Positions 1,896 to 36,869 of a DNA stretch of 41,816 bases are shown here, one piece after another (position 1 is the first letter of the stretch; the number at the start of each line of letters is the position of its first letter). The position numbers and the translations under genes are program-made. The stretch spans positions 1 through 41,816 of the forward strand of contig CANTHA010000002.1 in assembly GCA_947653375.1 (NCBI GenBank), given 5' to 3'. A model generated the notes under the pieces. It searched no databases and had not been told where the DNA came from. It saw nothing but the letters and a program-made list of their open reading frames with translations. This stretch comes from an uncultured Clostridium sp. (GTDB lineage: Bacteria > Bacillota > Clostridia > TANB77 > CAG-508).

Positions 1896-1906
1896 TAGAA
1901 CATCTC

Positions 1907-2098
1907 CTACTCTTTATTTAATAGTCTATTTGCATATCCAACTACTCCTTCTTTTCCAAATGAAGTTTGTAATGGATCTAATTCTCTTTTAAACTTTTTC
2001 AAATCTATATTATTTTTATCTCCTGTTTTTAGTAAATTATTTAATCCAATTAAAGCATAAGCTCTAACTTGATCCCAATTATATAATTCTCTTGCCAT
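1907..2098 (-). CDS. Small hypothetical protein (63 aa) of the regulatory module
   Basis: ORF whose start overlaps the stop of the upstream gene at 2098, suggesting translational coupling. No recognisable motif. Confidence 0.5.
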   Translation of the reverse strand: MARELYNWDQVRAYALIGLNNLLKTGDKNNIDLKKFKRELDPLQTSFGKEGVVGYANRLLNKE

Positions 2099-2532
2099 TA
2101 TAATACCTCCACTTTTACATATTTAGGTACATCAAAACTGCGACCTAGTTCTTCTTTAAATTCAAATCTTTTTTTCTTTTCATTATAAGAATAAGCACTT
2201 TTATTCCAATTACGATATGCCATATTGGATAATCGTTTAGGTTGTGATAATTCCATACTTGCTTGATTGTGCATATTCTTCAAAATCAAATCATCTGCAT
2301 TATTCTTAAATTGTGTGATTTTTCTTTTTGCTTTTATATGATCCTTTGTTTCTTCAATATGTTTCTTTTGATTTTTAATTTTTCTTTCTTGTTTTATTTC
2401 AACATATCTTTTGTCTTTTTTTAATACTTGTGTTACTGCACTTTTTGAAATATCTAGTTTTTTTGCAATATCAACTGGTCTTAATTTTTCAATAAAGTAC
2501 ATACTTAAAATTACATCTTTTCGGTTTTTCAT
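2098..2532 (-). CDS. Sigma-70 region-4-like HTH regulator
   Basis: N-terminal LRPVDIAKKLDISKSAVTQVLKK HTH. It occupies the position upstream of xis-int seen in Tn916-type regulatory modules. Confidence 0.6.
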   Translation of the reverse strand: MKNRKDVILSMYFIEKLRPVDIAKKLDISKSAVTQVLKKDKRYVEIKQERKIKNQKKHIEETKDHIKAKRKITQFKNNADDLILKNMHNQASMELSQPKRLSNMAYRNWNKSAYSYNEKKKRFEFKEELGRSFDVPKYVKVEVL

Positions 2533-2563
2533 AAGTGCCTCACTTTCTTTACTTAACTTTTTG

Positions 2564-2692
2564 CTAACACTTTAATTGCTTGACAAAGCTAATAAGAAGT
2601 GAGCTTCTTATTTTAGATTTAGAACTATATAGATTAGGTATAAAGCCAATTCTATTTAGCTTTGAATGAGATTTGTTATTTATAATTTTCAT
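2564..2692 (-). CDS. Possible 42-codon leader/small ORF (MKIINNKSHSKLNRIGFIPNLYSSKSKIRSSLLISFVKQLKC)
   Basis: GGGAGG lies 10 nt upstream of the ATG. The ORF contains a perfect 9-bp hairpin (aataagaag tgag cttcttatt). It is below the ORF-track size cutoff. Confidence 0.25.
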   Translation of the reverse strand: MKIINNKSHSKLNRIGFIPNLYSSKSKIRSSLLISFVKQLKC

Positions 2693-2752
2693 ACTCTCAT
2701 TTCCTCCCTTCTATATATAAACCCACTTCTTATTAAAAACCGAAGCTACTTT

Positions 2753-3376
2753 TTATAATTTTTTTAAATTATTTCTAATTTGTTTTTTTGCTTTATTTAC
2801 ACTATCTCTTATTGCATCTGGTGTAGAGCCTTCTTCTATCGCTATTACAACAAGAGGAATATCTTGCATTTTATTTTTATAAAATCTGTCATTTTGTTTT
2901 TTAGAAAGAGTTTCTTGTAGAAATGTTTTTACTCGCTTTTCTTCGATTTTTCTTAACACTTCATTTTCGAGATTACATTTACTTGCAATATTGTCTATAT
3001 CTTCTTGTTTAAAAAAGCAATCTAAATGTCTTTCTCTTTCGTGCCTTCTCTTGTTTTTCTCATATTTCTGCGACTTATATAAGCAATAATATATTTCTTC
3101 ATCTACTGCTTGAATCACATAAGTTTCTGGATCTTTATGGAATCCAACAGCATAAGTAGCGAATACCTTAATCATTGAATCTTTAGAATTATTTAATTTT
3201 TGAATTAGGTCATTATATTCCTTTTTGCTTATCTTTACACAATTTTCAAATCTAGTTCCGATTGCATAGTGCATATAATATTTTGTATAGAAATCATATT
3301 TATTTGCTTGATCGTAATTTATTATTTTTTCTTTTGATTTTTCATATTTATCAATTTCTTTATATTTATTTTTCAT
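2753..3376 (-). CDS. Sigma-70 region-4-like protein (207 aa)
   Basis: C-terminal QDIPLVVIAIEEGSTPDAIRDSVNKAKKQIRNNLKK resembles sigma region 4. I moved the start to the ATG at 3376, which is preceded by GGAGG; the track ORF extends to 3412. Confidence 0.55.
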   Translation of the reverse strand: MKNKYKEIDKYEKSKEKIINYDQANKYDFYTKYYMHYAIGTRFENCVKISKKEYNDLIQKLNNSKDSMIKVFATYAVGFHKDPETYVIQAVDEEIYYCLYKSQKYEKNKRRHERERHLDCFFKQEDIDNIASKCNLENEVLRKIEEKRVKTFLQETLSKKQNDRFYKNKMQDIPLVVIAIEEGSTPDAIRDSVNKAKKQIRNNLKKL

Positions 3377-3680
3377 TTTAAACCTCCAACAATTAAATTT
3401 TTTAAAATTCAACTGTTTGGAGGTGGCGACTTGTTTCTAACAAATTCTACAGATAAAATAAAAAAGTTATTTATAGAAACACACAAAAGTCTTAAAGAAA
3501 TAAGAACAATATCATTTATTAAGTTATTTGTAATAAACAACTGCCCCATAATATACAACACTCCAAATCTTGCCTTTCAATTTCTTTGTCTGGAGTGTCT
3601 GTATAATTGATTTCATCTGATGTTAGGAGTTTTTAAACTCAATTTACGGACACTATAATCTGGATTTTGTATTTTGAACT

Positions 3681-3740
3681 AAAATGGGTAGATAAAAAGA
3701 AATATGTGTAGAAAAAAAGAAAAAAGGGTACAAAAAAAGA
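3681..3740. repeat. Three tandem, exactly phased 20-bp iteron-like repeats
   Basis: aaaatgggtagataaaaaga / aatatgtgtagaaaaaaaga / aaaaagggtacaaaaaaaga. The third copy recurs exactly at 11750-11769. Confidence 0.6.
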
Positions 3741-3784
3741 TGCAATTTGTACTAAAAACAAAATTGCATCTCTTTACAAATGAT

Positions 3785-3834
3785 TATAAAAAATCAAAGA
3801 CCTAAATTCTTTTTCAATTTTAGGTCTTTGATTT
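3785..3834 (-). terminator. Rho-independent terminator of the RHH gene
   Basis: Perfect 16-bp stem aaatcaaagacctaaa/tttaggtctttgattt followed by T6 on the minus strand. A second perfect 10-bp hairpin (gatgcaattt/aaattgcatc) lies at about 3740-3772. Confidence 0.7.
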
Positions 3835-4172
3835 TATTTATTATAATTATCTAAAAATTCTTTCATTGCAATATTCACTAATCTTGTTAATGAAATTCCT
3901 GTTTCTTTAGTTATCTTATTTAATGCTTCAACATTATCTTTTCGTATCATAATACTTCTGTATATAGTTATTTCTCCTTCTGGCTTGGCATAATACTTTA
4001 TATTTCCATTAGATATTAAATCTTCTATACAAACATTTATAACATCGCTAATTGTAGCGTCATATTCATTTTCTACTATTTGCTTTAGGTTTGTATATAA
4101 TTTATCTTCTAAATTTATACTTTTTTGAACAGTAGAATTATTCTTTTTATATAGTCTATCAATAGCACTCAT
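3834..4172 (-). CDS. Small protein with two ribbon-helix-helix-like units (112 aa), paralogue of 5172-5516
   Basis: Starts MSAIDRLY after GGAGGTG. Two units match the beta-strand-plus-two-helix RHH pattern (KSINLEDKLY..., YRSIMIRKDNVEALNKITKETGISLTRLVNIAMKEFL). The track ORF's 5' extension to 4385 is rejected. Confidence 0.6.
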   Translation of the reverse strand: MSAIDRLYKKNNSTVQKSINLEDKLYTNLKQIVENEYDATISDVINVCIEDLISNGNIKYYAKPEGEITIYRSIMIRKDNVEALNKITKETGISLTRLVNIAMKEFLDNYNK

Positions 4173-4255
4173 ATTACACCTCCTAGCTTTAAGTTCTAAC
4201 CTTTTCACGATTATTATACTTAAAAATTTTGTTGTATGTAACTCGATTGTTTCGT

Positions 4256-4267
4256 GTGTATATACAC
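4256..4267. promoter_or_regulatory. 12-bp perfect palindrome (gtgtatatacac) in a divergent promoter region
   Basis: Lies between the divergent starts at 4172 (-) and 4342 (+). Candidate operator. Confidence 0.35.
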
Positions 4268-4341
4268 GATAATAGGTTGTATATTGAATCTTTTTATTAT
4301 ATAATTGTTTTACTAATTTATGGAAGGAGGTAGAATCTATT

Positions 4342-4779
4342 ATGCAAATATCAGAAAAATGCGTAAAGTTATTGCACGATTGCAATATTCCTATGTTAAG
4401 GTCTAACTTTTTAATGGCTGATTTAGAAAAAATATTATATGGAGTAATAGATGAACAAAATAAAAAAGAACTTAAATATGATGATTACTGGCATAAGCCA
4501 TTAAGCAATGATATGTTAAATTTAGCAAATGAATGGAAAGATAAAACATTTTCAGAAGATTTATTTCTAATTTTAAATAACAACTTAAAACAAATAACAG
4601 AAAATGATACAACTAAATATTCTGCTCAAATGATATTTCCTTTTTTTGTTGAAAAAAAATTAACTGGATTTGCAATCTTCTTTAGGACTAATGGTGATTA
4701 TATTTCTAGTAGTGCTAAAGCACCAAAAACAATTAGAAATTTTATACAAAATGTTTTAAATGAAGAATCAGATTTTTAA
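4342..4779 (+). CDS. Hypothetical protein; possibly a SpoVT C-terminal (GAF-like) domain without an AbrB-type DNA-binding domain
   Basis: GGAAGGAGG RBS. C-terminal MIFPFFVEKKLTGFAIFFRTNGDYISSSAKAPKTIRNFIQNVL parallels the SpoVT tail (GPIVANGDPIGAVVIFSKD...AAGFLARQ) as recalled from memory. Confidence 0.4.
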   Translation: MQISEKCVKLLHDCNIPMLRSNFLMADLEKILYGVIDEQNKKELKYDDYWHKPLSNDMLNLANEWKDKTFSEDLFLILNNNLKQITENDTTKYSAQMIFPFFVEKKLTGFAIFFRTNGDYISSSAKAPKTIRNFIQNVLNEESDF

Positions 4780-9369: not shown

Positions 9370-11040
9370 TCATATATTCTCTTTGTTATATCGCCAAATA
9401 AATCCACCTGCTGATTTTCTAGTTCCATTACAGGCACTTGAAATATGTTTTATCCCAGTTAGATTTATAGCTTCTGTAACACTATTATATGTATTAACAT
9501 ACACGCCATCTAAAGTATATTGATAAACTTTTTTTGATTTTTTATTTCCTATAACTTTTTTTGCACATTCTGGACACCCTTTGCCCTGACTTCTATTATA
9601 TGGTGTTGATTGCCATTCATATTCGCAATTTGAACATTTCCACCATACTTTTTTATTACTTTTCAATGTTATTTCATTAGGAGATATAGTATTTTTTTCA
9701 TAATTCCACTCTTTTAAAAATATAGGTTTTTTTTCAAATAGTGTTCCATTCTTTTTCAATAATACTTTTTCAAGAGTAGCAACCCTTCTTTTATGCGAAC
9801 ATTTTGGGCATTTACATCCAGCCATAATTTCATTTGGACTTCTAAAATATGCTTCTCCACATTTAGAACATTTCCACCATACTTTTTTCCCACTAGATAA
9901 ATATATCGTATCTGGAGTTATAGGATAATTTTTTTCATAATCCCATTCTTTTATTATTTCACTATTTAGACTTGATAAACTGCGTTCTTTCAAAGATTTT
10001 TGATAAGATTTATCTATTTCACTATAATCTCTTTTTACATCAATAAAGTTTTTATCATATATAATGTTTAGTTTATCTAATAATGTTTTTATTGCCTTTG
10101 TTAAATTATCACCTTTATCATATCCATATATTATCTTATTATCTTTCCAAAATACATTGTTGCTTTTTTCTTTTTTCTCAATTATTCTATATAATGTGAT
10201 TCCTCTTTTTTTGATTTCATTTTCTTTTTGTTTATCAGTAGTTTTCTTGTTTTTATGAAAGAAAAATCCATCATACTCAATACCTACTTTGAATTGTGGT
10301 AAAAATATATCAATTTCATATCTATTATCTAATTTATACCTATTATAGCATTCTATATTTAACTTTTTAATATAGTAGAAAATAGCCTGTTCTCCAAATG
10401 AAGTATTCTTTTCTGAATTACATTTTGGGCATCCTCTACCATTACTTCTACTAGATATAATTGCTTTCCAACTATTTTTACATCTTTTACATATCCAATA
10501 AGCATACTGATTAGAAAATTCACCAATTTTATGAGGATTCAACTTGTTTTTTTCATAATCCCATTCTTCTAATAATTTAGGTTGTTTTGTTGCAAAATCG
10601 TTATATCCTGTTAAAATTTTATTTCCATAACAATAAACACATCTAGGAAATTTTTTTATTGCATAGGAAGTAGCATATCGTTCGTGTCCACATTCAAACT
10701 TCCACCAATATTTTTTTGTAGCATTAAATATAACTTCTTCTGGTCTTTTGTTATTTTTATCATAGTTCCAAAATTGTAATATTTGAGAATCAGTTGTTTT
10801 TAGATCATTATATCCTTTTTTGACACATCTTCTATTACAATACGGACAGCCATTTTTTATATTATTTCTATCCTTTACAATTTTTTGATATATATGACCG
10901 TTTTGGCATTTCCACCATACTTCTTTATGGCTTCCACACGTCACTTTTTGAGGGAAAATATTTAATTTATTATTTTTTTCATAATACCATTCTTTTATTA
11001 AAAGTTCATTATCTATAACATACTTCTTATCTTTACTCAT
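9370..11040 (-). CDS. Multi-zinc-ribbon protein with central Vsr/DUF559-like nuclease core and C-terminal homing-endonuclease-type DNA-binding motif
   Basis: Five WWKC...CPxC treble-clef-like modules. The core reads EIDIFLPQFKVGIEYDGFFFH and the tail reads VTEAINLTGIKHISSACNGTRKSAGGFIWRY. Confidence 0.65.
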   Translation of the reverse strand: MSKDKKYVIDNELLIKEWYYEKNNKLNIFPQKVTCGSHKEVWWKCQNGHIYQKIVKDRNNIKNGCPYCNRRCVKKGYNDLKTTDSQILQFWNYDKNNKRPEEVIFNATKKYWWKFECGHERYATSYAIKKFPRCVYCYGNKILTGYNDFATKQPKLLEEWDYEKNKLNPHKIGEFSNQYAYWICKRCKNSWKAIISSRSNGRGCPKCNSEKNTSFGEQAIFYYIKKLNIECYNRYKLDNRYEIDIFLPQFKVGIEYDGFFFHKNKKTTDKQKENEIKKRGITLYRIIEKKEKSNNVFWKDNKIIYGYDKGDNLTKAIKTLLDKLNIIYDKNFIDVKRDYSEIDKSYQKSLKERSLSSLNSEIIKEWDYEKNYPITPDTIYLSSGKKVWWKCSKCGEAYFRSPNEIMAGCKCPKCSHKRRVATLEKVLLKKNGTLFEKKPIFLKEWNYEKNTISPNEITLKSNKKVWWKCSNCEYEWQSTPYNRSQGKGCPECAKKVIGNKKSKKVYQYTLDGVYVNTYNSVTEAINLTGIKHISSACNGTRKSAGGFIWRYNKENI

Positions 11041-27546: not shown

Positions 27547-28281
27547 TTACAATATTTGTATTAGTTCTTTTAAATTATTTATAGTCATAGTTGGCTTATA
27601 TTCATCACATAATTTTTCATTGTTTCTATTAAACCAACAACTATCGAAATTACATCTCATAGCAAATCCCACATCTGACTTCAATGAATCACCTATCATT
27701 AAATATTCTTTAATATTGTAATTATTTAAAGTTTTTTCTATTCCTTCAAAAAACTCTTTATTAGGTTTCATATAACCAAACATATCAGCAGATAGTATTT
27801 CATTTACAAAATCTATGCAGTTTATTTTCAATAGCTTATCTCTTGTAGCGACTTTAGGTCCATTAGTAGCAATTATAATATAATAGTTTTTATTTGATAA
27901 ATACTTTAATGTTTCATAGGCTCCATCTATTGCAATAACATTTTCAGTTAAAGCATTCATATAAATATTATTCAAGTTAATTGCCTCATTCAAAGAAATT
28001 TCATTATTAAAATATATTAAAACTCTTTGTGCTCTTAACCAATTTAAAAATTCATCACTTTTTTTGCCTGTTTCATTCTTTAAATGTTCTGGTAATTCAA
28101 TTAGTCCATCTTGCCAGTCTTTCCAAAATTGCTTATCTATTTCATACCATACTTTAAAACTGTCATTGCTATATTTTTCATTTTTTGATTCAATCATTTT
28201 TTTAAAAGCATATTTAACATTTTCCAAATTATCTATTAAAGTATCATCTAAATCAAATATCAATATTTTATATTTATTCAC
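27547..28281 (-). CDS. HAD family hydrolase (YjjG-like nucleotidase candidate)
   Basis: ILIFDLDDTLID motif I, ATNG and GDSLKSDVGFA motifs. Confidence 0.8.
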   Translation of the reverse strand: MNKYKILIFDLDDTLIDNLENVKYAFKKMIESKNEKYSNDSFKVWYEIDKQFWKDWQDGLIELPEHLKNETGKKSDEFLNWLRAQRVLIYFNNEISLNEAINLNNIYMNALTENVIAIDGAYETLKYLSNKNYYIIIATNGPKVATRDKLLKINCIDFVNEILSADMFGYMKPNKEFFEGIEKTLNNYNIKEYLMIGDSLKSDVGFAMRCNFDSCWFNRNNEKLCDEYKPTMTINNLKELIQIL

Positions 28282-28295
28282 TAGCTTACCTTTCC

Positions 28296-28718
28296 CTATC
28301 TATTTCTTTTTAGATATTCCTCTATAAACTTTTTAGCAGGAGAATATAAATTTTCTGGTAAATCATTTATATCAAACCATTTCCATTCACTATGCTTTGT
28401 TGGCTCTAAATTTTTCAACTCTCCATTAAATTTATTTGCAACTAATTGAATAGTTACAAAATGCTTATTAGGTTGAATATCATCTGTCGCACCAAAAATT
28501 GATAATTCTGAAATATCTAAATTAGTTTCTTCTTTAACTTCTCTTATAGCTCCTTCTATCATTGTTTCGTTGTATTCTTGTTTACCACCAGGAATTGTCC
28601 AACTTCCAGGCTCATAAATTCCTCCAGTATCTTTATAATTATCGCATCTATGTCCTAAAAGAATTTTGTTACCATCTCTAATTACAATTCCTAAACCAAC
28701 TTTAATTATATTTTCCAT
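28296..28718 (-). CDS. NUDIX hydrolase (MutT-like)
   Basis: Nudix box GGKQEYNETMIEGAIREVKEETNLDI. Confidence 0.85.
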   Translation of the reverse strand: MENIIKVGLGIVIRDGNKILLGHRCDNYKDTGGIYEPGSWTIPGGKQEYNETMIEGAIREVKEETNLDISELSIFGATDDIQPNKHFVTIQLVANKFNGELKNLEPTKHSEWKWFDINDLPENLYSPAKKFIEEYLKRNR

Positions 28719-28733
28719 ATTAGCTCCTCCAGT

Positions 28734-29135
28734 TTATATTTTTTCTTTTAATTTAGATAAGTTTTTAGATAAACTTATTACTTCTAATGGTATTTCAATC
28801 AATTTATTATCAACTGCTACATAGTTTGTTATTTCAATATTGCTTATATCAATAGCATTTTCTAATTCTTTAATAATATAATGAAGTTGTATGCAATGAG
28901 GTGATTTATCTACAGTAGCAAAAATCATTTTTTTTATTTTGCCTCTTGCTATCATACCAATTATTTTTGTTACCACCATATTTAAGTGTTCTTTCTCTAG
29001 GCATACATCATAAATGCTCGTAGAAATTTGTTCTAACTGTTTATATGCTTTAGGTTGCATACTTTCTAAACAACTTCCTACAATAATCATTGTTTCTTGA
29101 ATGTCAAAGCAATTTATTTTTAATAAATCTTTCAT
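28734..29135 (-). CDS. Hypothetical protein (133 aa)
   Basis: I prefer the start at ATG 29135 (GGAG RBS, MKDLLKINCF...), 16 nt after the deaminase stop. The track ORF extends to 29162. Confidence 0.55.
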   Translation of the reverse strand: MKDLLKINCFDIQETMIIVGSCLESMQPKAYKQLEQISTSIYDVCLEKEHLNMVVTKIIGMIARGKIKKMIFATVDKSPHCIQLHYIIKELENAIDISNIEITNYVAVDNKLIEIPLEVISLSKNLSKLKEKI

Positions 29136-29151
29136 TTTTTGTTCTCCATTT

Positions 29152-29601
29152 CTATTTTGCATTTTTTAACACTTCAACTGCCTTATCTCTATGTACTTCT
29201 TTAACAATTTCTATCTTTCTATTTTTACAATTATCTGCAACAACTTGTGCTTTTACTAATATATCATTTACACATTCTTTTGAATCTTCTAAAGTTGCAC
29301 CATATACTAATTTTTCGATTCCAGTATAAAGAATTGCTCCCATACACATTGCACAAGGCTCACAAGAAGAATAAATTACACAATCTTTTCCACCCTCTGC
29401 ACATAGGTGTCCTCCTAAATGTTCCATTGCATCTTCTATTGCTCTTAATTCTGCGTGAGAAAATGCTGTTTTAGAAACTGGAACATCTTTATCACTTCTA
29501 CCAATAATTTCTCCATTTTTCACAATTATAGCTCCATAAGGATATATTGCTTTTTTACTTAATTCTATTGCAATATCAATAAATTTTTCATCTTCATTCA
29601 T
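29152..29601 (-). CDS. CMP/dCMP-type zinc deaminase (TadA/guanine deaminase-like)
   Basis: HAELRAIEDA and PCAMCMGAI zinc-binding motifs. Confidence 0.85.
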   Translation of the reverse strand: MNEDEKFIDIAIELSKKAIYPYGAIIVKNGEIIGRSDKDVPVSKTAFSHAELRAIEDAMEHLGGHLCAEGGKDCVIYSSCEPCAMCMGAILYTGIEKLVYGATLEDSKECVNDILVKAQVVADNCKNRKIEIVKEVHRDKAVEVLKNAK

Positions 29602-29667
29602 TGTAAATCCTCCTACTTAATTATTCTCCATTAAGATTTTATTCCCTCTATTTTCTAAATTGCCCTT

Positions 29668-29696
29668 ATTGTATCATAAAAGTTAATTTTTGTCTT
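29668..29696 (-). promoter_or_regulatory. Candidate promoter of the long cargo operon
   Basis: On the minus strand: AAGACA, 17-nt spacer, TGATACAAT (extended -10), about 65 nt upstream of the deaminase ATG. Confidence 0.35.
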
Positions 29697-29734
29697 TATT
29701 TTTGCGACTTTTATTTTGAAAATGACATAAAAGG

Positions 29735-29774
29735 CAAAAAAAATAGCAAGAGCCAATTTTGAACTCTTGCTATT
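29735..29774 (-). terminator. Rho-independent terminator after the C5 methyltransferase
   Basis: aatagcaagag/ctcttgctatt, a perfect 11-bp stem followed by T8 on the minus strand. Confidence 0.75.
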
Positions 29775-29780
29775 TGCTAA

Positions 29781-31241
29781 TTACATATCTTTTAATAAAT
29801 TCTTAAATATCGCTTCTAAAACATTAACAACTATACTATTTCCAGCTTGTCTATATAATTGTGTATCTGATATTCCTACAGATCTTACTTTGTTAAAGTC
29901 TGTATCTTCGAATCCCATCAATCTCCAACATTCAAGAGGAGTTAATTTTCGTATTTTCATAAAATGATTTCCATCTTCTGAAATCAATACTGCTGCACTC
30001 GAACTTGTAATTCCACAAGTTGTTGTCTGTGTTGGAGCAATATCTTTAATCTCTTTTTGATTATATGGATTAAACATTTTTCTTTCTGCAATACTTGGTC
30101 TAAACTGACTAGCAGTAACTGCTGTTGCAATTCCTTCTGTATCATATATTCTATCTTGTAAACTAGGTTGTTTCTTTTGATTATTTAAACATATAGGTTT
30201 AGGTGTTTCAATAACTGTAGCCATACTAGGTGATGTTAGAATTGTCTGTGATACCTCTTTTCCAACTCTCCCTCGTTTTGTTGTACTATTAGGATAAGAA
30301 TAATTTATTGAATCTCCTTCTCTTGCTTCTGTGTATCCTTTTTTAGTACCTTCTTTAACAAGAATATAAGGTTGTTTATGTCCTCCATTATCCATAGTAG
30401 TTAGTGTAGGCGATATTCCATTTGGATTATATACACTTCCTGCTTGATGCTTTGATTTCTCTGCATCAAATAATCCTGCTACTCTTTCAACATTATTAGA
30501 TTCTGCAATATATTGATTTTGACTTCCACTCATTTTGTGATAACCTGCTATAAGACAAGAACTTATATTAGGATTTTGACAATCTTTTAATAGTTTGTTG
30601 TTTTTCTTTATTAACCTTCCTATTCCATTTTCCGTTAAATAAAATTTGTCATCTACTTTATCTTCTAAAATATCTTTAAGTTTTAAATTTAATGTTATTG
30701 GAGATGGAAAAGTAAAATTGTTTTTATCAATATCTTTACGAATGGAAACAATAAATACTCTTTCTCTATTTTGTGGAACTCCATAATCTTTTGCATTTAA
30801 TACTTTCCAATAATTATTATATCCTAGTTCTGATATATCATTTAATATTGAATTAAATTGTTCTTTAAATCTTTGACTTGTTAAATTTTTAACATTCTCA
30901 ATTATGCTATATTTAGGCATTTTTTCTTTTAATATTTTATATCCTTCATAATATAATCCGCTTCTAGTTCCCTCTTTTATTCCTTCCATTCTACCAGCTA
31001 TTGAAATATCTTGACACGGAAATCCCCAACTCATAAGATCAAAATCTGGTATTTTATCAATTTCTATCTTTGTTACATCTCCTAAATTTTTATTTTCTGG
31101 TACATTATGAATAGTACAATAACTCTTAATAGCATATTTATCTATTTCTGAAAATCCTACTAATTCATAATCTATATTTAATCTCTCTAATGCTTTTTCA
31201 AAAGCTCCAATTCCTGTAAATAAACTTAATAATTTTAACAT
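29781..31241 (-). CDS. DNA (cytosine-5)-methyltransferase, orphan
   Basis: Motifs LFTGIGAFE (I), GFPCQDIS (IV), ENVKNL (VI), QNRERVFIV (VIII) and QAGNSIVVNVL (X), with a long variable region. The ATG at 31241 follows AAGGAGG; the track start at 31262 is GTG. Confidence 0.9.
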   Translation of the reverse strand: MLKLLSLFTGIGAFEKALERLNIDYELVGFSEIDKYAIKSYCTIHNVPENKNLGDVTKIEIDKIPDFDLMSWGFPCQDISIAGRMEGIKEGTRSGLYYEGYKILKEKMPKYSIIENVKNLTSQRFKEQFNSILNDISELGYNNYWKVLNAKDYGVPQNRERVFIVSIRKDIDKNNFTFPSPITLNLKLKDILEDKVDDKFYLTENGIGRLIKKNNKLLKDCQNPNISSCLIAGYHKMSGSQNQYIAESNNVERVAGLFDAEKSKHQAGSVYNPNGISPTLTTMDNGGHKQPYILVKEGTKKGYTEAREGDSINYSYPNSTTKRGRVGKEVSQTILTSPSMATVIETPKPICLNNQKKQPSLQDRIYDTEGIATAVTASQFRPSIAERKMFNPYNQKEIKDIAPTQTTTCGITSSSAAVLISEDGNHFMKIRKLTPLECWRLMGFEDTDFNKVRSVGISDTQLYRQAGNSIVVNVLEAIFKNLLKDM

Positions 31242-31265
31242 AATAAAATTCCTCCTTTGCACACG

Positions 31266-31308: not shown

Positions 31309-32940
31309 TTATTTACTATATAATGAATCAATCTCTTTTTTCTTTTCCAAAACAAGTTTTTCTAAATCTGTTCCCTTTGCGATTCCAATTTTTTGATTGT
31401 CTTTATCATATAGTTCGTATTCTTTATCATCTACTAAATATAATGTATAAAACTGATATTTTTCATTATAGGCAGTAAATTTTTTATCTATATGTATTTT
31501 AAAGTTTGTATAAGGTAAATTTATACAATACTCTTTATCATTTGAATTTTTGTAGTCTATTTTATTTCCACCAAATTTAATATTGTGTATATATAAACCA
31601 CTACTTGATAATTTTTCTTCTTTTATAGTTTCTAAATGATTAAGTTCCCTTTGAAGTTCTAATATTTCGTTTCTTTTTTTATTTATTTTAATTCGTTCTG
31701 ATCTTGAATCTTTAATTAACTGCTTTGCTTCATCAATAGAAGTTATATTCAAATCATTTTGTAATTTTATAAATATATCAACTTCTGTTGGAAATACATA
31801 ATCCTCATCTATTTCTTTATAAGACATAGCATACTCATATAATTCATAAAGTCTAATATAATCATTTGCCATCTCTGTAGTTTTAAGAATCTTATTAAAT
31901 TTTTCTTGATTCTTTTTCACTTCAATATTTTTATCTTTTATCTGCCCTCTTTTAATTGATATTTCTGTTTCAATATCATTGAAATCTCGGATATTATATT
32001 TATCTAAATATTCTAATTGTTGTTTTAATTTATAATATCGTTGTATTTCTTGATATTTTGTTTTTTGATATTCATTATAAACTTTTCCTTTAGTTTGCAA
32101 CTGACTTTTTTCTATAGCAATTTTAGATTCATTTGCTTTTTGAAATAATATAGAATTAAATTCTGTTTTATTTGTTTTTATTGCTAGTAATTTAATGTTT
32201 GTCCTATCTCTATAAAATTTATATAAATTGTTAGTAGCATACTTTGAACTTATTGTATCTATTCTTGCATATCTTTGCATACCTAAACATCTAACTGAAA
32301 TATGCTTTCCTCTCCTTATCTCATATCCTTTAATAGATAATTCATCTAATAGTTCATCAATACTATTACATTTAGAAATAACCTTTTCAATATCATCTTG
32401 TATTTGTTCTTTCCAAGTCTGTCTTTTATATTGGTAATAGTAATCTCTTTCTCTCGATTTATGATAAATTTTTTTAGGCATAATAAAACAACCATACTCT
32501 GCTGCAATTTTATCACTTGTATCGCTTAATCCATACAAACCTTCTTTTTGATTTGCAAGTCTATCTTCTAATTTCTTTCCAGACAAGTTTATTGCATTTA
32601 CAGATATATGATTGTGTATATGTCCTTTATCAATATGAGTGGATATTACACATTGATAATTCGGATATAGTTCTTTGCATAATTTCAAGCCAATTTCATT
32701 TGCTTGTTCTACAGTTATTTTATCCTTTGGAGAAAAACTTTGTATAATATGATATGCTGATCTAGTTCCTGTCATTTTAAATTTGTTTTGAACATCTTTA
32801 AATTCATAATATGCAGTATTTATATTGCAATTTAAGCTACTTGTAAATCCAACTTTTGCTCCATCATTTTTTTCATCCAAAATATATTCAATTAAATTTT
32901 TCGCAGTTCCTAAATGTGCTAATCTTTTTGTAACTGGCAT
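31309..32940 (-). CDS. Relaxase/mobilization nuclease (MobA/VirD2-type, PF03432-like)
   Basis: YHIIQSFSP and HIDKGHIHNHISVNAINL histidine triad, followed by a long Lys/Glu-rich C-terminal region. Confidence 0.85.
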   Translation of the reverse strand: MPVTKRLAHLGTAKNLIEYILDEKNDGAKVGFTSSLNCNINTAYYEFKDVQNKFKMTGTRSAYHIIQSFSPKDKITVEQANEIGLKLCKELYPNYQCVISTHIDKGHIHNHISVNAINLSGKKLEDRLANQKEGLYGLSDTSDKIAAEYGCFIMPKKIYHKSRERDYYYQYKRQTWKEQIQDDIEKVISKCNSIDELLDELSIKGYEIRRGKHISVRCLGMQRYARIDTISSKYATNNLYKFYRDRTNIKLLAIKTNKTEFNSILFQKANESKIAIEKSQLQTKGKVYNEYQKTKYQEIQRYYKLKQQLEYLDKYNIRDFNDIETEISIKRGQIKDKNIEVKKNQEKFNKILKTTEMANDYIRLYELYEYAMSYKEIDEDYVFPTEVDIFIKLQNDLNITSIDEAKQLIKDSRSERIKINKKRNEILELQRELNHLETIKEEKLSSSGLYIHNIKFGGNKIDYKNSNDKEYCINLPYTNFKIHIDKKFTAYNEKYQFYTLYLVDDKEYELYDKDNQKIGIAKGTDLEKLVLEKKKEIDSLYSK

Positions 32941-33356
32941 TGCTTATTATCCTCCACTCCTTCGACTTTTGTATGATTTATTTGTTTCCATACATCTAAA
33001 TCTAATTTTTCATCAATAAGTTTAATCATTGATTTTTGATTCCTTAATATTCCATACATAGTGTTCGTTAAGTTTTTTAATTCCTCACTTGATAACTGTG
33101 TTGCATATCTACTTATATGCCTTATTTCTTTTGCGATTTTTTTTAGTTGTTCTGTATTATCAGAATATGCTTTATATAGTTCCTCTTTGCTCTTTAAATC
33201 AACATAAGTAACATTTTCATAAATGACTGCATCTCTAACATAAGGTGCAAGTCTTTTATATCCATAATATTCTGCTTTTGCTTCTACTAATATTCGTTCT
33301 TCTTTTGATAACCAAACTTTTATACTTTCCCTTCTTTGTTTTGAATTCAATTCCAT
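32919..33356 (-). CDS. MobC-like relaxosome accessory protein
   Basis: RRESIKVWLSKEERILVEAKAE is RHH-like. The gene sits directly upstream of the relaxase and overlaps it. The ATG at 33356 follows GAGGAG. Confidence 0.55.
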   Translation of the reverse strand: MELNSKQRRESIKVWLSKEERILVEAKAEYYGYKRLAPYVRDAVIYENVTYVDLKSKEELYKAYSDNTEQLKKIAKEIRHISRYATQLSSEELKNLTNTMYGILRNQKSMIKLIDEKLDLDVWKQINHTKVEGVEDNKQCQLQKD

Positions 33357-33377
33357 TACAATCACTCCTCTCAATTT

Positions 33378-33989
33378 TCAATTTAGATAAAAAAAGTTAT
33401 CATATATGTAACCTGCTACAATATATTTTTCAGTTAATTCCATTTTATATTGTTCTAATAATTCTAAATATTTTTGTTTAAAACAGTTTTTGCATAACCA
33501 CTTAATTCCTTCTTTAGAAATTACAAATTCATTATCTTTAATATATCTATAACTTGTGTTTACTTTTATCATTTTATAAATGGCTCTTTTTATAGTTGGC
33601 TTTGATCTATTAAAATACAATTCTAATTTCTTCACATACATATCTTCATTAAATAGACTTTTAGAATTTATATTTAATACTTTTTCATATTCCTTAATTC
33701 GAGTTTCAAAAAATTCAATGTCAGCATCAATTAAAGGTTTTTCTTTTTGAAAATATACATATCTGATCCACAAATATCCTTCTATTAAAATAAAATACCT
33801 TTTACTTTTAATCTTATTGCTTTGCCATCTACAATTAGGATGCTTTCTTAACATAGTTGATACAGCCAATCTTAAATCTTTGTGTGTAATTTCATTATTG
33901 TTTTTAGTTGTAATATTATTGATTTTTAATCGCTTTAATATTTTGTTATACGATAGAAAAAAATTATCTAATTGATTTTGACTATCCAT
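33378..33989 (-). CDS. Hypothetical protein (203 aa)
   Basis: AGAGGA RBS. Basic protein upstream of mobC. No recognisable motif. Confidence 0.55.
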   Translation of the reverse strand: MDSQNQLDNFFLSYNKILKRLKINNITTKNNNEITHKDLRLAVSTMLRKHPNCRWQSNKIKSKRYFILIEGYLWIRYVYFQKEKPLIDADIEFFETRIKEYEKVLNINSKSLFNEDMYVKKLELYFNRSKPTIKRAIYKMIKVNTSYRYIKDNEFVISKEGIKWLCKNCFKQKYLELLEQYKMELTEKYIVAGYIYDNFFYLN

Positions 33990-34007: not shown

Positions 34008-34391
34008 TTATATTTCATTTTCATAGTCAATTACTTCATTATCCGAATGTACTATTTCGTGTTGTATGTTACTATTATCCAAATTATTTGTTAATTCTTT
34101 CATTGTGATTCCTAAATCATAAAGTTTGTTTAGCATAGTTTGTTTACTTGATTCTATATGCCTATTAGATAATACCCTATCTGTAAAATCTTCTAATGCT
34201 TCCTTAAATTCTTCATAATAGCTGCCAAAATTCCAAGATTTACTTTTTATATCAAATCCATTTACTATAATATATTTTTCTGGTGTATCATACATTTTCT
34301 CAATTAAAGCATAATTATCTACTAATGCTAAAATTTTTAAATCGCCTAATGACTTTGTTTTAAAATACATATTATTTTCTTTATTATCCAT
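34008..34391 (-). CDS. Hypothetical protein (127 aa)
   Basis: The ATG at 34391 follows AAGGAGG. This is the first gene downstream of the structured island. Confidence 0.55.
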   Translation of the reverse strand: MDNKENNMYFKTKSLGDLKILALVDNYALIEKMYDTPEKYIIVNGFDIKSKSWNFGSYYEEFKEALEDFTDRVLSNRHIESSKQTMLNKLYDLGITMKELTNNLDNSNIQHEIVHSDNEVIDYENEI

Positions 34392-34444
34392 AACAATTTT
34401 CCTCCTTAACTTCAATTTTTTAACTCTTATATATTCTATTTCTA

Positions 34445-34640
34445 TATTAAAAATATTCTTGTACTAGCGAAGCGTAGGACAAGAAATCCAGAGCAATTTA
34501 TTTGCTCCGAATATTGAGGATTATTTTTAATGCCCAATATTCGCCAGCTTGGTGTTTTGACACCCTTTTCGCTGTTTAGGGCAAAAGCCCTAAAACCCAT
34601 TTTGCCCGCTGGGAGATAATTTTTTTGTTTTAATTTTTGA
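34445..34640 (-). other. GC-rich, hairpin-dense non-coding island (candidate oriT, ssDNA element or structured RNA)
   Basis: At least six stems sit in about 160 nt: ttcttgt/acaagaa, cagagcaa/ttgctccg, gaatattgagg/cccaatattc, ccagc/gctgg enclosing ggtgt/acacc, and tttagggc/gccctaaa. GC content is far above the flanks. Confidence 0.55.
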
Positions 34641-34669
34641 AAAAAGTGGAGCATTTTCTACTCCACTTT
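34640..34669 (-). terminator. Rho-independent terminator of the leading-region operon
   Basis: On the minus strand: AAAGTGGAG tagaaaatg CTCCACTTT followed by a T-run, 12 nt after the stop at 34681. Confidence 0.75.
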
Positions 34670-34680
34670 CGTTCAAATTT

Positions 34681-36066
34681 TTAATTAAGATCATACTCAA
34701 ATTCGTTTTCATTTTTAGTAACATTTTGTTTTAATTTTTCTCTTAAATTTTCATAAGTTTCATAAATTGATAACACATTTTCTGTTACAGCTTTTATACC
34801 ATTCCAAGCACTTGTATCTACTTGTATTGAAGAATTATTTTCAAAAGTAATTGTTGTTAAATATTTGCCATCTGATATATCTTCTGTATAAAGATTAGAA
34901 TATTTTATACCTAATTTATCCATTATTTCTTGATACATAGAAGATAAATGATATAAACCTTCATCACCATCACTTCCATATTCCATCAAGTTTTTTATCT
35001 CATTTATTCTAAAATAATCAATAACTTTTGAAAGAGCCAATTCATAATAATTTGCAGATTTTTCTTTATAATCTTCTAAAAAATCTTCAAGTGATTCAGC
35101 TCCTTCTGCTAGACAAATTATATCAGAATTAAAATAATTATTTGATTTTGAATATAATTCTAAAGTATCTTTATCATATTCTATATCATTTGTTTCAAAA
35201 TATAAATGTAAAGTTTCTTCAAAGTCTTTAAGTTGCTCTAATGAAAAATAATCAAAAAATTCAAATATTTTATCTTCTGGTACTGCATATTTTTCTATCA
35301 ATGGAAATTGGTCTTTTACCATATATCCATATCCTACTTTTTTCAATTCTTCAAAAGTAATATAGAAATTCCATTTACCATTTGAATCAAATAATTCTAA
35401 ATCATTTAGATCATAAGCAATTTCATTTTTTATTACAGAATTATATAATTCTTGATAAAAATTATATTCATATACTTCAAAATTTCCATCTAAATAATCT
35501 TTATAATTTTTGCTATTTATCTTGCCTTTTTCTTTTAAGTCTATATACTCATCTTCAATAAAAATATGTAATATCTTATTATCAATTTCAAGCAACATTT
35601 CTTTTGACATTGTACCTACATATTTTTTACAAACACTTTTGTAAAACTTCTCATCTTCATCAAGTATTTCTATAATATCTTGCATTTCAAATTTTTCTTT
35701 TTTACTTATAAAATCAATATATTCTTTTGTATGAATCTCGCTTAATACTTCTGCTACTGTATCACTTTCAATATACCTTTTTGTAACTAAATCCCAATCA
35801 TCTTTTTGTAGTTTTACATTATCATCTTGTTTCATTTCTAGTGGATTATAAACATAGTCTTGATGATATGAATCTAATCGTTCCATAATATCTGCCAATG
35901 TATAAAATTCTTCTTGTTCTATTCCATTTAGATTTCCTTTTTGAATATCATTTAGTCTAAATACATTTTCTAAATCTTTGTTAATATCAATTACTAATTG
36001 AAAGTCATATACATTTAACATTTGTCTAAAATATTTTACGATTTTTTCTTTCTTTTTTTCATCCAT
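34681..36066 (-). CDS. Acidic hypothetical protein (461 aa)
   Basis: The ATG at 36066 follows GAGGGGAG; the track start at 36096 is GTG. Visibly Asp/Glu/Tyr-rich. Confidence 0.65.
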   Translation of the reverse strand: MDEKKKEKIVKYFRQMLNVYDFQLVIDINKDLENVFRLNDIQKGNLNGIEQEEFYTLADIMERLDSYHQDYVYNPLEMKQDDNVKLQKDDWDLVTKRYIESDTVAEVLSEIHTKEYIDFISKKEKFEMQDIIEILDEDEKFYKSVCKKYVGTMSKEMLLEIDNKILHIFIEDEYIDLKEKGKINSKNYKDYLDGNFEVYEYNFYQELYNSVIKNEIAYDLNDLELFDSNGKWNFYITFEELKKVGYGYMVKDQFPLIEKYAVPEDKIFEFFDYFSLEQLKDFEETLHLYFETNDIEYDKDTLELYSKSNNYFNSDIICLAEGAESLEDFLEDYKEKSANYYELALSKVIDYFRINEIKNLMEYGSDGDEGLYHLSSMYQEIMDKLGIKYSNLYTEDISDGKYLTTITFENNSSIQVDTSAWNGIKAVTENVLSIYETYENLREKLKQNVTKNENEFEYDLN

Positions 36067-36092
36067 TTTAGTAACTCCCCTCTTAAAATTTT

Positions 36093-36869
36093 TCACATAT
36101 CATTGTTGATTTCAATAGTGTCTTTTAATTCATTTTCTTTCATAATTTCTTGAAACCACTCTGTATAATGTTTCTTATTTTCTTCATCTAATAGATGTAG
36201 TTTTTCTCCAGTTTTCATATAACTTTCGTATTTCTTTTTTACATATTCAGAATCTTCTTTCATAAGATCTTCAATATCTTCTTCATCTGTAAAATAGTCA
36301 AACATTCTAAAGTAAACTCTATCAATAATTTCATTAAGTGTAGTGTTTTCATCAAATTTAAAAGTATTACATTGTTCATCTTTTATGTTATATTTCCCAT
36401 CTGGATATTTTGTAATAGACCACTCATAAAAATCTAAAAAGCCATCTAAATCAGATGCACTTTCTTTATCTTGTAATTCTTTTCCAAAGTTTGTATATTC
36501 ATAATTCATTTTGAATAAATATTCTTTATTACAAGCTCTTATAAGTTCATCTACATTTAATATTTTCATTTCACTATCGTAATTCAAATAATCTTTTCTA
36601 TCTCCCCAAGTAAAGCCTTTACTCCATTGAAATTCAATACAAGTATCATTTCTATTTCCATTATTTAGTTCTACATAGTGCCAAAATTTACTTTCCGAAA
36701 ATTCATTGAACTCTTTATCATAGCAACAACTTTTTTCAAAATATTCAGCATATTCTTTTAAGAATCCAACACTTTTCATAAGTTCAATAAACTTAAAAAG
36801 ATCATCATCATAACTTCGCCTTAATTTTATAACTGCACTAAAAGTTAAAAATTCTTCCATTTCATTCAT
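36093..36869 (-). CDS. Acidic hypothetical protein (258 aa)
   Basis: AAGGAG RBS. Asp/Glu-rich with no recognisable motif. Confidence 0.65.
   Translation of the reverse strand: MNEMEEFLTFSAVIKLRRSYDDDLFKFIELMKSVGFLKEYAEYFEKSCCYDKEFNEFSESKFWHYVELNNGNRNDTCIEFQWSKGFTWGDRKDYLNYDSEMKILNVDELIRACNKEYLFKMNYEYTNFGKELQDKESASDLDGFLDFYEWSITKYPDGKYNIKDEQCNTFKFDENTTLNEIIDRVYFRMFDYFTDEEDIEDLMKEDSEYVKKKYESYMKTGEKLHLLDEENKKHYTEWFQEIMKENELKDTIEINNDM

Follow-up and report, generated by a model that had tools for sequence, protein, structure and literature searches.

What a short, G+C-rich and densely self-complementary island is doing in the middle of AT-rich DNA is the question raised by the 41,816-nucleotide stretch analyzed here (the window), which comprises positions 1 to 41,816 of contig CANTHA010000002.1 (assembly GCA_947653375.1) from an uncultured Clostridium sp. 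The window carries a conjugative element of low-G+C gut Clostridia that is probably integrative, because a tyrosine integrase is encoded at 349-1620; cargo-like metabolic genes fill the rest of the window. An earlier note, made from the sequence alone, had left three options for the island: an origin of transfer (oriT), a single-strand promoter or origin, or a structured RNA. Among these, the oriT fits best, a single-strand promoter or origin is less likely than that, and a structured RNA is disfavored. Based on its sequence and that of its homologues, the island is probably the oriT of a new family of Clostridial conjugative elements, copies of which, either alone or together with the adjoining gene p203, are carried by integrative mobilizable elements. 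The reasons for this reading are (i) a conserved position beside relaxosome genes, (ii) a core that is kept in one orientation by elements lacking a relaxase, (iii) covarying hairpins, and (iv) invariant linkers.

The unusual composition and self-complementarity that the earlier note had described are real. The G+C content of 34456-34616 is 42.9%, compared with 25.4% for the whole window, and fold z-scores of about -6 to -9 were obtained for either strand, as RNA or as DNA. Folded as RNA, the segment 34440-34680 reached -80.9 kcal/mol on the - strand (z -8.6) and a z-score of -5.9 on the + strand; folded as DNA, the z-scores were -7.6 (- strand) and -8.7 (+ strand). None of the dinucleotide shuffles matched the native stability in any of these four fold runs.

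All six of the stems listed in the earlier note were found where it had placed them, as separate helices of 3-11 bp. Read along the - strand, i.e., in the order of transcription, the terminator of the upstream operon is followed by an A-rich spacer (TCAAAAATTAAAACAAAAAAATTATCT, 34614-34640), in which an A-tract before TCTCCC is common, in the alignments, to all three of the genomic contexts described below, and then by the hairpins Ha, H2, H3, H4, H5, and H6. Ha is a 3-bp mini-hairpin, CCC-AGC-GGG (34605-34613), and H2 reads TTAGGGC-TTTT-GCCCTAA (34576-34593). Between H2 and H3 lies the linker ACAGCGAAAAG (34565-34575), the 5' part of which forms, together with the 3' arm of H2, the near-invariant string CCCTAAACAGC. 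H3, GGTGT-CAAA-ACACC (34551-34564), takes an alternative form in some relatives (TGGTCC-nnn-GGACCA) and is separated from H4 by the linker A(A/C/T)GCTGG, which is AAGCTGG in the window (34544-34550) and is the candidate nick region. The long hairpin H4, CGAATATTGGG...CCTCAATATTCG (34508-34543), marks the 3' limit of the sequence common to all contexts. H5 (GAGCAA-ATAAA-TTGCTC, 34491-34507) and H6, which has a variable stem and the conserved loop (C)TwCGCTwyGCTAG (34456-34485), occur only where p203 follows, H5 being absent from the loci designated class 2 below. Therefore, we distinguish a core of ~109 nt (34508-34616), consisting of the A-tract, Ha, H2, H3, the linker A-N-GCTGG, and H4, from an accessory module of H5 and H6 that is separate from the core and travels with the p203 gene.

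Homologues of the island were reached both through neighboring proteins and through a nucleotide pattern of the core. Loci found via the small protein p127 carry the island at 82-100% identity. Twelve further loci were found only via the relaxase (65-97% protein identity), and 11 of them have an intact core at 67-98% DNA identity; in the 12th, L036, the 3' part of the island alone aligns. Dozens of loci, with relaxases that are 49-100% identical, have the same gene order around the island, and the relatives come from metagenome-assembled genomes named uncultured Clostridium or Clostridia, plus Clostridium sp. CAG:440. In addition, at least 120 public metagenome contigs, mostly from the gut, match the core pattern, which is made of three invariant blocks and fixes TTAGGG, CCCTAAACAGC, and GCTGGCGAA. 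These three strings are also invariant in the protein-found loci, with single exceptions in L030 and L036. Across the protein-found loci, the H2-H3 linker is invariant except in L030 (CCCTAACCAGC), the H3-H4 linker is invariant but for one position, and the outer six pairs of H2 are invariant, these pairs being fixed by the pattern in the metagenome set. A scan of viral contigs with the core pattern gave 0 matches, blastn of the island against PLSDB plasmids and INPHARED phages gave no match, and a literature string search with the conserved motifs returned chance primer matches only.

Two irregularities were seen among the homologues. Many of the metagenome contigs (L002, L005, L006, L007, L012, L013, L018, L019, L022, and L023) begin inside the island. 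These breaks were considered as element ends or nick sites, and this was rejected because their positions vary; they fit assembly breaks at a core that is repeated in several elements of one metagenome sample. In one class-b copy (see below; L149:105-326), the 3' arm of H4 contains a palindromic insertion of ~45 nt (ACGCATATAATCATAGACACGAAATCAAAGATTTCGACTATGATTTA), which looks like a miniature insertion or a duplication within the putative oriT.

The compensatory changes in homologues that the earlier note had proposed looking for are abundant. A covariance model (R1), built with all six hairpins, found exactly one copy per source in 90 sources. In the R1 alignment, paired cells amounted to 90.9%, compared with 79.4% in column shuffles, and 25 of the 39 pairs changed on both sides. 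The covariation score was 0.270, compared with 0.094 in shuffles; it was reached by 0 of 500 shuffles and fell to 0.076 or less when the partners were slid by 1-3 columns. The same compensatory changes are visible in the raw sequences and occur in five of the six hairpins. All 10 pairs of H6 and all six pairs of H5 changed on both sides: in H6, of which there are 29 distinct versions with a conserved loop, TTCTTGT/ACAAGAA gives way to TACATAT/ATATGTA, CTTAATGC/GCATTAAG, and others, and in H5, GAGCAA/TTGCTC gives way to AAGCA/TGCTT or GCAAAAT/ATTTTGC. Four of the eight outer pairs of H4 did likewise (GAATATTG/CAATATTC to GAATAATG/CATTATTC), and all 51 distinct H4 versions fold. Three of the five H3 pairs changed on both sides, GGTGT/ACACC becoming TGGTCC/GGACCA, and this alternative form tracks the clade of the NikA-like protein encoded nearby. 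The innermost pair of H2 is A-U in 40 sequences and C-G in 30. Of 89 distinct sequences, 62 have C-G and 25 have U-A as the middle pair of Ha, although this helix is very short and its support weak. RNAalifold, applied to 24 sequences at ≤96% similarity, recovered Ha, H2, H4, and H6. Covariation alone cannot tell single-stranded DNA from RNA.

Two finer structural proposals of the earlier note fared less well. A junction closed by CCAGC/GCTGG is literally present as complementary sequence, but the homologues give it no support: its 3' side is invariant and fixed by the search pattern, 25-27 sequences have TCGGA on its 5' side, and covariation could not be measured. Likewise, the alternative fold between GGGCAAAA and TTTTGCCC exists as a literal complement, but it performed no better than shuffles or slid partners.

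To see which part of the island is kept together with which genes, loci were oriented by the core, homologues of the window proteins were mapped, and open reading frames (ORFs) were listed and scanned with Pfam. In class 1, the conjugative elements like that of the window, p471 or its relatives precede the terminator, and the core with H5 and H6 is followed by p203, the NikA-like gene, the relaxase gene, and a Dcm gene. In class b, a phage replisome organizer and an IstB/DnaC-like ATPase lie upstream of the core, H5, and H6; p203 follows, then restriction-modification or other cargo, with a tyrosine integrase a few kilobases away, and no relaxase or NikA homologue was found in the ORF and Pfam scans of these loci. 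Class 2 has neither p203 nor a relaxase: HTH_36 and Abi_2 genes and a terminator lie upstream, the core stands alone, and genes for DUF1653, an HD protein, and a large serine recombinase come after it. The ATTCG that closes H4 is the exact limit of similarity in several class-2 groups that are unrelated to one another, and unrelated sequence follows. The orientation of the core relative to the flanking genes is identical in all three contexts. Therefore, the unit under selection is the ~109-nt core (34508-34616).

A core that is kept in cis by elements without transfer genes, and that elsewhere adjoins relaxosome genes, resembles an oriT and its mimics. Such mimics are well documented on staphylococcal plasmids (PMC8136818), and in gut Faecalibacterium there are reports of integrated elements that lack a relaxase but have putative copies of an oriT (PMC12084326). 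As in those cases, relaxase-less elements here have a copy of a conjugative multi-hairpin site, and the structured site is the sole thing common to carrier and conjugative element. In contrast to them, the carriers here belong to uncultured Clostridia and are integrated elements that encode a serine recombinase or tyrosine integrase, one carrier class retains the accessory gene p203, and mobilization is predicted.

The layout of the locus is also that of an oriT. The island is a non-coding intergenic site upstream of the genes for p203, the NikA-like protein, and the relaxase, and downstream of type IV secretion system (T4SS) genes, and the inverted repeats H3 and H4 flank a conserved unpaired linker, A-N-GCTGG. 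In this respect it is like the MOBP oriTs of R64 (oriT-nikA-nikB), RP4 (oriT-traJ-traI), and the Tn1549-family integrative and conjugative elements (ICEs), which share an intergenic cis site directly upstream of accessory and relaxase genes, a spacing of 7-8 conserved nucleotides between an inverted repeat and the next element, an A/T-rich flank, a PF03432 relaxase with the HxDxxHxH motif, a NikA-like accessory protein, and an anti-restriction side facing the site. It differs from them in having no YATCCTG|Y, six hairpins rather than one or two, and an additional gene, p203, that is linked to two of the hairpins. The relaxase is divergent as well: it is less than 30% identical to any PLSDB plasmid relaxase, and its matches in NCBIfam, to the SAG1250 and TraI/MobA(P) relaxase families, are weak and far under the cut-offs.

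By analogy with the MOBP systems R64 (nikA-nikB) and RP4, the NikA-like ribbon-helix-helix protein, probably together with p203, would bind the repeats. The relaxase would nick one strand in or next to the H3-H4 linker and remain on the 5' end, and the T4SS encoded upstream would export the nicked strand. The hairpin 5' of the nick would then reform in single-stranded DNA, where it may be recognized for termination and rejoining. A conjugative element resident in the same cell would supply the relaxase that mobilizes, in trans, elements with the core only or with the core and p203, i.e., oriT mimicry would be at work. The position, the covariation of the stems, the three contexts, and the lack of coding or promoter signals were observed; nicking, protein binding, and mobilization in trans are predictions.

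The near-invariant H3-H4 linker is the best candidate for the nick region. The usual oriT layout, found in RP4, R64, R388, and RSF1010, is an inverted repeat followed by about 8 conserved nucleotides, and since the linker sits between two hairpins, this layout fits either strand. We lean slightly towards the + strand, rather than the - strand, as the one transferred. In favor of the + strand, MOBP systems transfer the relaxase operon last. Also in its favor, L036, in which p203, the NikA-like gene, and the relaxase gene are intact, retains only H4-H6, up to ...ATTCGCCAG on the + strand; its homology with the family begins exactly at CTGGCGAAT. The Ha-H3 half is replaced there by a module with a Mob_Pre (MOBV) relaxase gene on the opposite strand (L036:2764-3942, - strand; Pfam E 3.3e-39), and the junction (L036:4300-4460) reads AAAGTGTTAATCTGG/CGAAT, exactly at the H3-H4 linker; it could be a recombination product formed at the nick. 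Finally, ArdA and an orphan methyltransferase are encoded 6-7 kb away and point to the island, and anti-defense genes of this kind (ArdA, methyltransferase) point towards oriT in leading regions (PMC11541004).

On the other side, practically all genes of the element are co-oriented. This argues for the - strand, since co-oriented genes are the pattern of those Firmicutes ICEs whose rolling-circle replication starts at oriT and proceeds along the direction of transcription. With the - strand transferred, the most conserved block, Ha-H3, would lie on the recognition (5') side of the nick, and the tracking of the NikA-like clade by the H3 type is what is expected if NikA binds the nick-adjacent repeat, as in R64. 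A Dcm methyltransferase gene just downstream of the relaxase gene points the same way.

Several observations weigh against the island being an oriT. None of the nick consensus sequences scanned for was matched on either strand of 34441-34680, neither that of MOBP (YATCCTG|Y) nor those of MOBQ (GTGCGCC|C), ColE1 (CTGG|CTTA), MOBV (GTGTG|T), and MOBF (GGTGT|(N)G); the scan returned only a short CTGGC on the - strand. A minimal oriT needs less than is present here, namely six hairpins and, to one side of the candidate nick, ~75 nt that are very strongly conserved. The two arguments on the transferred strand, from the orientation of the ArdA and methyltransferase genes and from gene co-orientation, conflict with each other. 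Tests of the strand from the sequences themselves (per-hairpin RNA and DNA folding energies; G-T versus A-C cells) contradict one another between hairpins (in single-sequence folds, H4 is more stable on the + strand with RNA parameters, and H3 slightly favors the - strand), and the alignment favors G-U pairs. The conservation of TTAGGG, CCCTAAACAGC, and GCTGGCGAA in the metagenome set is imposed by the pattern and is not evidence, and because the R1 alignment (A4) was fitted to the model, its pair counts are biased in favor of the structure.

There is a small chance that Ha-H2-H3 (34551-34616) is a separate single-stranded-DNA element at the very end of the transferred strand, outside nick recognition. 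It would then be fused to a minimal oriT consisting of H4 and the linker, and could serve in priming or establishment as a signal of a new kind, or act as a protective structure or decoy that counters nucleases or defense systems in the recipient. Conservation of this block exceeds that of the relaxase gene, and elements without any transfer gene retain it as well.

The main rival explanation, which we consider unlikely, is that the island is a single-strand origin or priming site (sso/ssi), instead of or besides an oriT, whose hairpins, formed in the strand that is transferred or displaced by rolling-circle replication, recruit RNA polymerase or primase so that synthesis of the complementary strand can begin; for example, Ha-H2-H3 could act as the sso, with the nick region formed by H4 and the linker. 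ICEs do have ssos, such as sso1 of ICEBs1, and mobilizable elements would also gain from one. Covarying stems with fixed loops and linkers are what a structure read in single-stranded DNA should have, the DNA-parameter folds (z -7.6 and -8.7) agree, and, like ssoA (with RSB and CS-6) and ICEBs1 sso1, the island is a densely folded non-coding region of ~150-200 nt with covarying stems that would act as single-stranded DNA. Even the H6 loop of the window, CTAGCGAAGCGTAGG on the + strand, contains TAGCGA and AGCGTA, which are near the ssoA CS-6 sequence TAGCGT. However, this CS-6-like loop lacks conservation: in many homologues the loop is TTCGTAAACTAG, i.e., CTAGTTTACGAA when read on the other strand. 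H6 is absent from class-2 elements, so that the shared core lacks it. The island is, moreover, tied to relaxosome genes and not to a Rep gene, and an sso alone leaves the fixed position by relaxosome genes and the tracking of the NikA-like clade by H3 unexplained. An oriT would be required by the relaxase-less elements in any case, and they showed no candidate for it other than this one. A single-strand promoter of the Frpo type, in which a long imperfect hairpin in the incoming strand rebuilds -35 and -10 boxes and drives early transcription, is very improbable. The island does border an ArdA-type region whose genes point to it, as in the leading regions of F and ColIb-P9 where the Frpo and ssi promoters lie (PMC11541004), and its DNA folds are strong. 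Nevertheless, there is no -35/-10 pair on either strand within 34450-34640, and its short separate stems do not add up to one long duplex that could mimic a promoter. Moreover, transfer of the + strand would place the island downstream of the anti-defense genes, the wrong side from which to drive them.

The remaining explanations place the function in RNA or protein. A structured RNA, either the 5' leader of the mRNA for p203, the NikA-like protein, and the relaxase, or a cis-antisense RNA from a promoter-like site on the + strand at 34420-34448, could control the mobilization genes and is equally compatible with the covariation; the - strand RNA fold is the most stable (z -8.6), and H6, after which comes a T-run, is positioned 20-60 nt ahead of the start codon. 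Promoter-like hexamers exist on the + strand at 34406-34448, where a pair of overlapping sigma-70-like sites (TTAACT-17/18-TATATT) on the p127 side faces the island; a transcript from them could run antisense through H6-Ha and end at the bidirectional terminator. These sites are not conserved in relatives whose H6 abuts the ribosome-binding site. The Rfam scan that the earlier note had proposed matched no family: Rfam 15 gave 0 hits at gathering thresholds in the whole window, chance-level hits only at E ≤ 10 in 34300-34800, and nothing at the core in five related loci, and scans for tRNA and tmRNA found none. Upstream of the core there is no conserved sigma-70 promoter (9 of 12 positions or better in 9 of 88 distinct upstream regions, at scattered positions), but in 71 of the 88 a stable hairpin, read as a terminator, stands ≤70 nt away. 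The single-sequence fold energies of H4 (+) and H3 (-) yield no consistent RNA strand. In class 2, no T-run follows H4, p203 is absent, and the core runs into unrelated sequence and genes; therefore, a leader or antisense role cannot be the shared function. A structured RNA is thus quite improbable, and we favor a function at the DNA level. As for protein, the 70-codon ORF on the - strand at 34442-34654, conservation and translation of which the earlier note had named beforehand as one finding that would overturn its proposal, is open in the window, and gene callers annotated ORFs of 87 and 98 amino acids over the island in close relatives. It is not conserved: among 24 diverse homologues, there are one to six stops in almost every frame of both strands, and the sense frame is open in three only. 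Indels of 1-2 nt fall in the loops, and the stem substitutions are compensatory, not synonymous. These stops refute the ORF as a gene, and the probability that we leave to it is next to nil.

A gene closely associated with the putative oriT is p203 (33378-33989, - strand), which encodes a 203-residue protein of an uncharacterized family. It starts 95-170 nt past the core in most loci carrying it and co-occurs with H5 and H6. In the protein collection, clustering at 90% identity divides the family into about 1988 clusters, without an informative name; no Pfam domain was found among the 120 listed of these ~1988 clusters, and both Pfam and NCBIfam are empty for the p203 of the window. An AlphaFold model from 38 sequences was confident (pLDDT 88.4) and had no significant match in the PDB; its weak hits, mostly to winged-helix regulators, are a hint only. 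From the strict linkage to H5 and H6, we infer that p203 is an oriT-binding or regulatory accessory protein, and it is probably a DNA-binding protein.

If the island is indeed an oriT, the site at which transfer starts is defined for a widespread conjugative family, hitherto uncharacterized, in uncultured, very low-G+C gut Clostridia, with a divergent MOBP-like relaxase and an unannotated accessory family of ~2000 clusters (p203). In that case, at least two kinds of small integrated elements carry the oriT alone (with Abi cargo) or the oriT with p203 (with restriction-modification cargo), and surveys of the gut mobilome that are based on relaxases would miss both. The covariance model R1 offers a direct means of finding such elements.

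The setting of the island within the window agrees with what the earlier note had described, namely a strong terminator and ArdA, methyltransferase, and DUF2958 genes upstream and NikA-like and PF03432 relaxase genes downstream. All genes around the island are on the - strand. The island occupies a 265-nt intergenic gap (34416-34680) between the 471-codon ORF p471 (34681-36096) and the small gene p127, which likely starts with the ATG at 34391. Upstream, the - strand operon encodes the T4SS proteins PrgI, a VirB4-like P-loop_TraG protein, and an NlpC/P60 hydrolase, together with RadC, an N6/N4 methyltransferase, ArdA, DUF2958, p471, and several unknown genes, and it ends at the intrinsic terminator GAAAGTGGAG-TAGAAAATG-CTCCACTTTTT (34641-34670, - strand), a strong hairpin in the folds. 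Downstream, the series runs p127, p203, NikA-like gene, relaxase gene, and Dcm-type methyltransferase gene. p127 (34008-34391, - strand) encodes a small protein of unknown function and is an insertion confined to the sub-lineage of the window; in most relatives, p203 comes directly after H6. The NikA-like ribbon-helix-helix relaxosome accessory protein (32919-33374, - strand) was recognized by Pfam PF21983 (E 2.5e-5) with 24.8 bits, slightly below the curated cut-off of 27 bits, and the precomputed annotation in L020 is "weak." The relaxase (31309-32940, - strand) has 543 residues and a MobA/VirD2-type nuclease domain with the HxDxxHxH motif (Pfam PF03432, E 1.7e-32). In one close relative, L028, the part of the relaxase gene that matches (L028:~1900-4400) begins only at residue 114, and its distance from nikA is 2.8 kb greater than in the window. 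A group II intron domain (RF00029, 61 bits, L028:5905-6001) was detected in the locus, and the relaxase there is probably interrupted by an intron.

Directly after the relaxase gene, the region 27547-31262 encodes the Dcm-type methyltransferase, a dCMP/cytidine deaminase-like protein, an AF_0155-like protein, a NUDIX hydrolase, and a HAD hydrolase. The relatives L002 and L008 conserve these genes, which may be a nucleotide-modification or anti-defense block on the opposite side of the putative oriT. Among the cargo genes, one at 9370-11040 encodes a 556-residue protein with five DUF4379 treble-clef zinc-finger repeats (E 2.9e-76), a NUMOD1 domain, and a weak match to REase_MTES_1575, and it may be a nuclease or defense gene.

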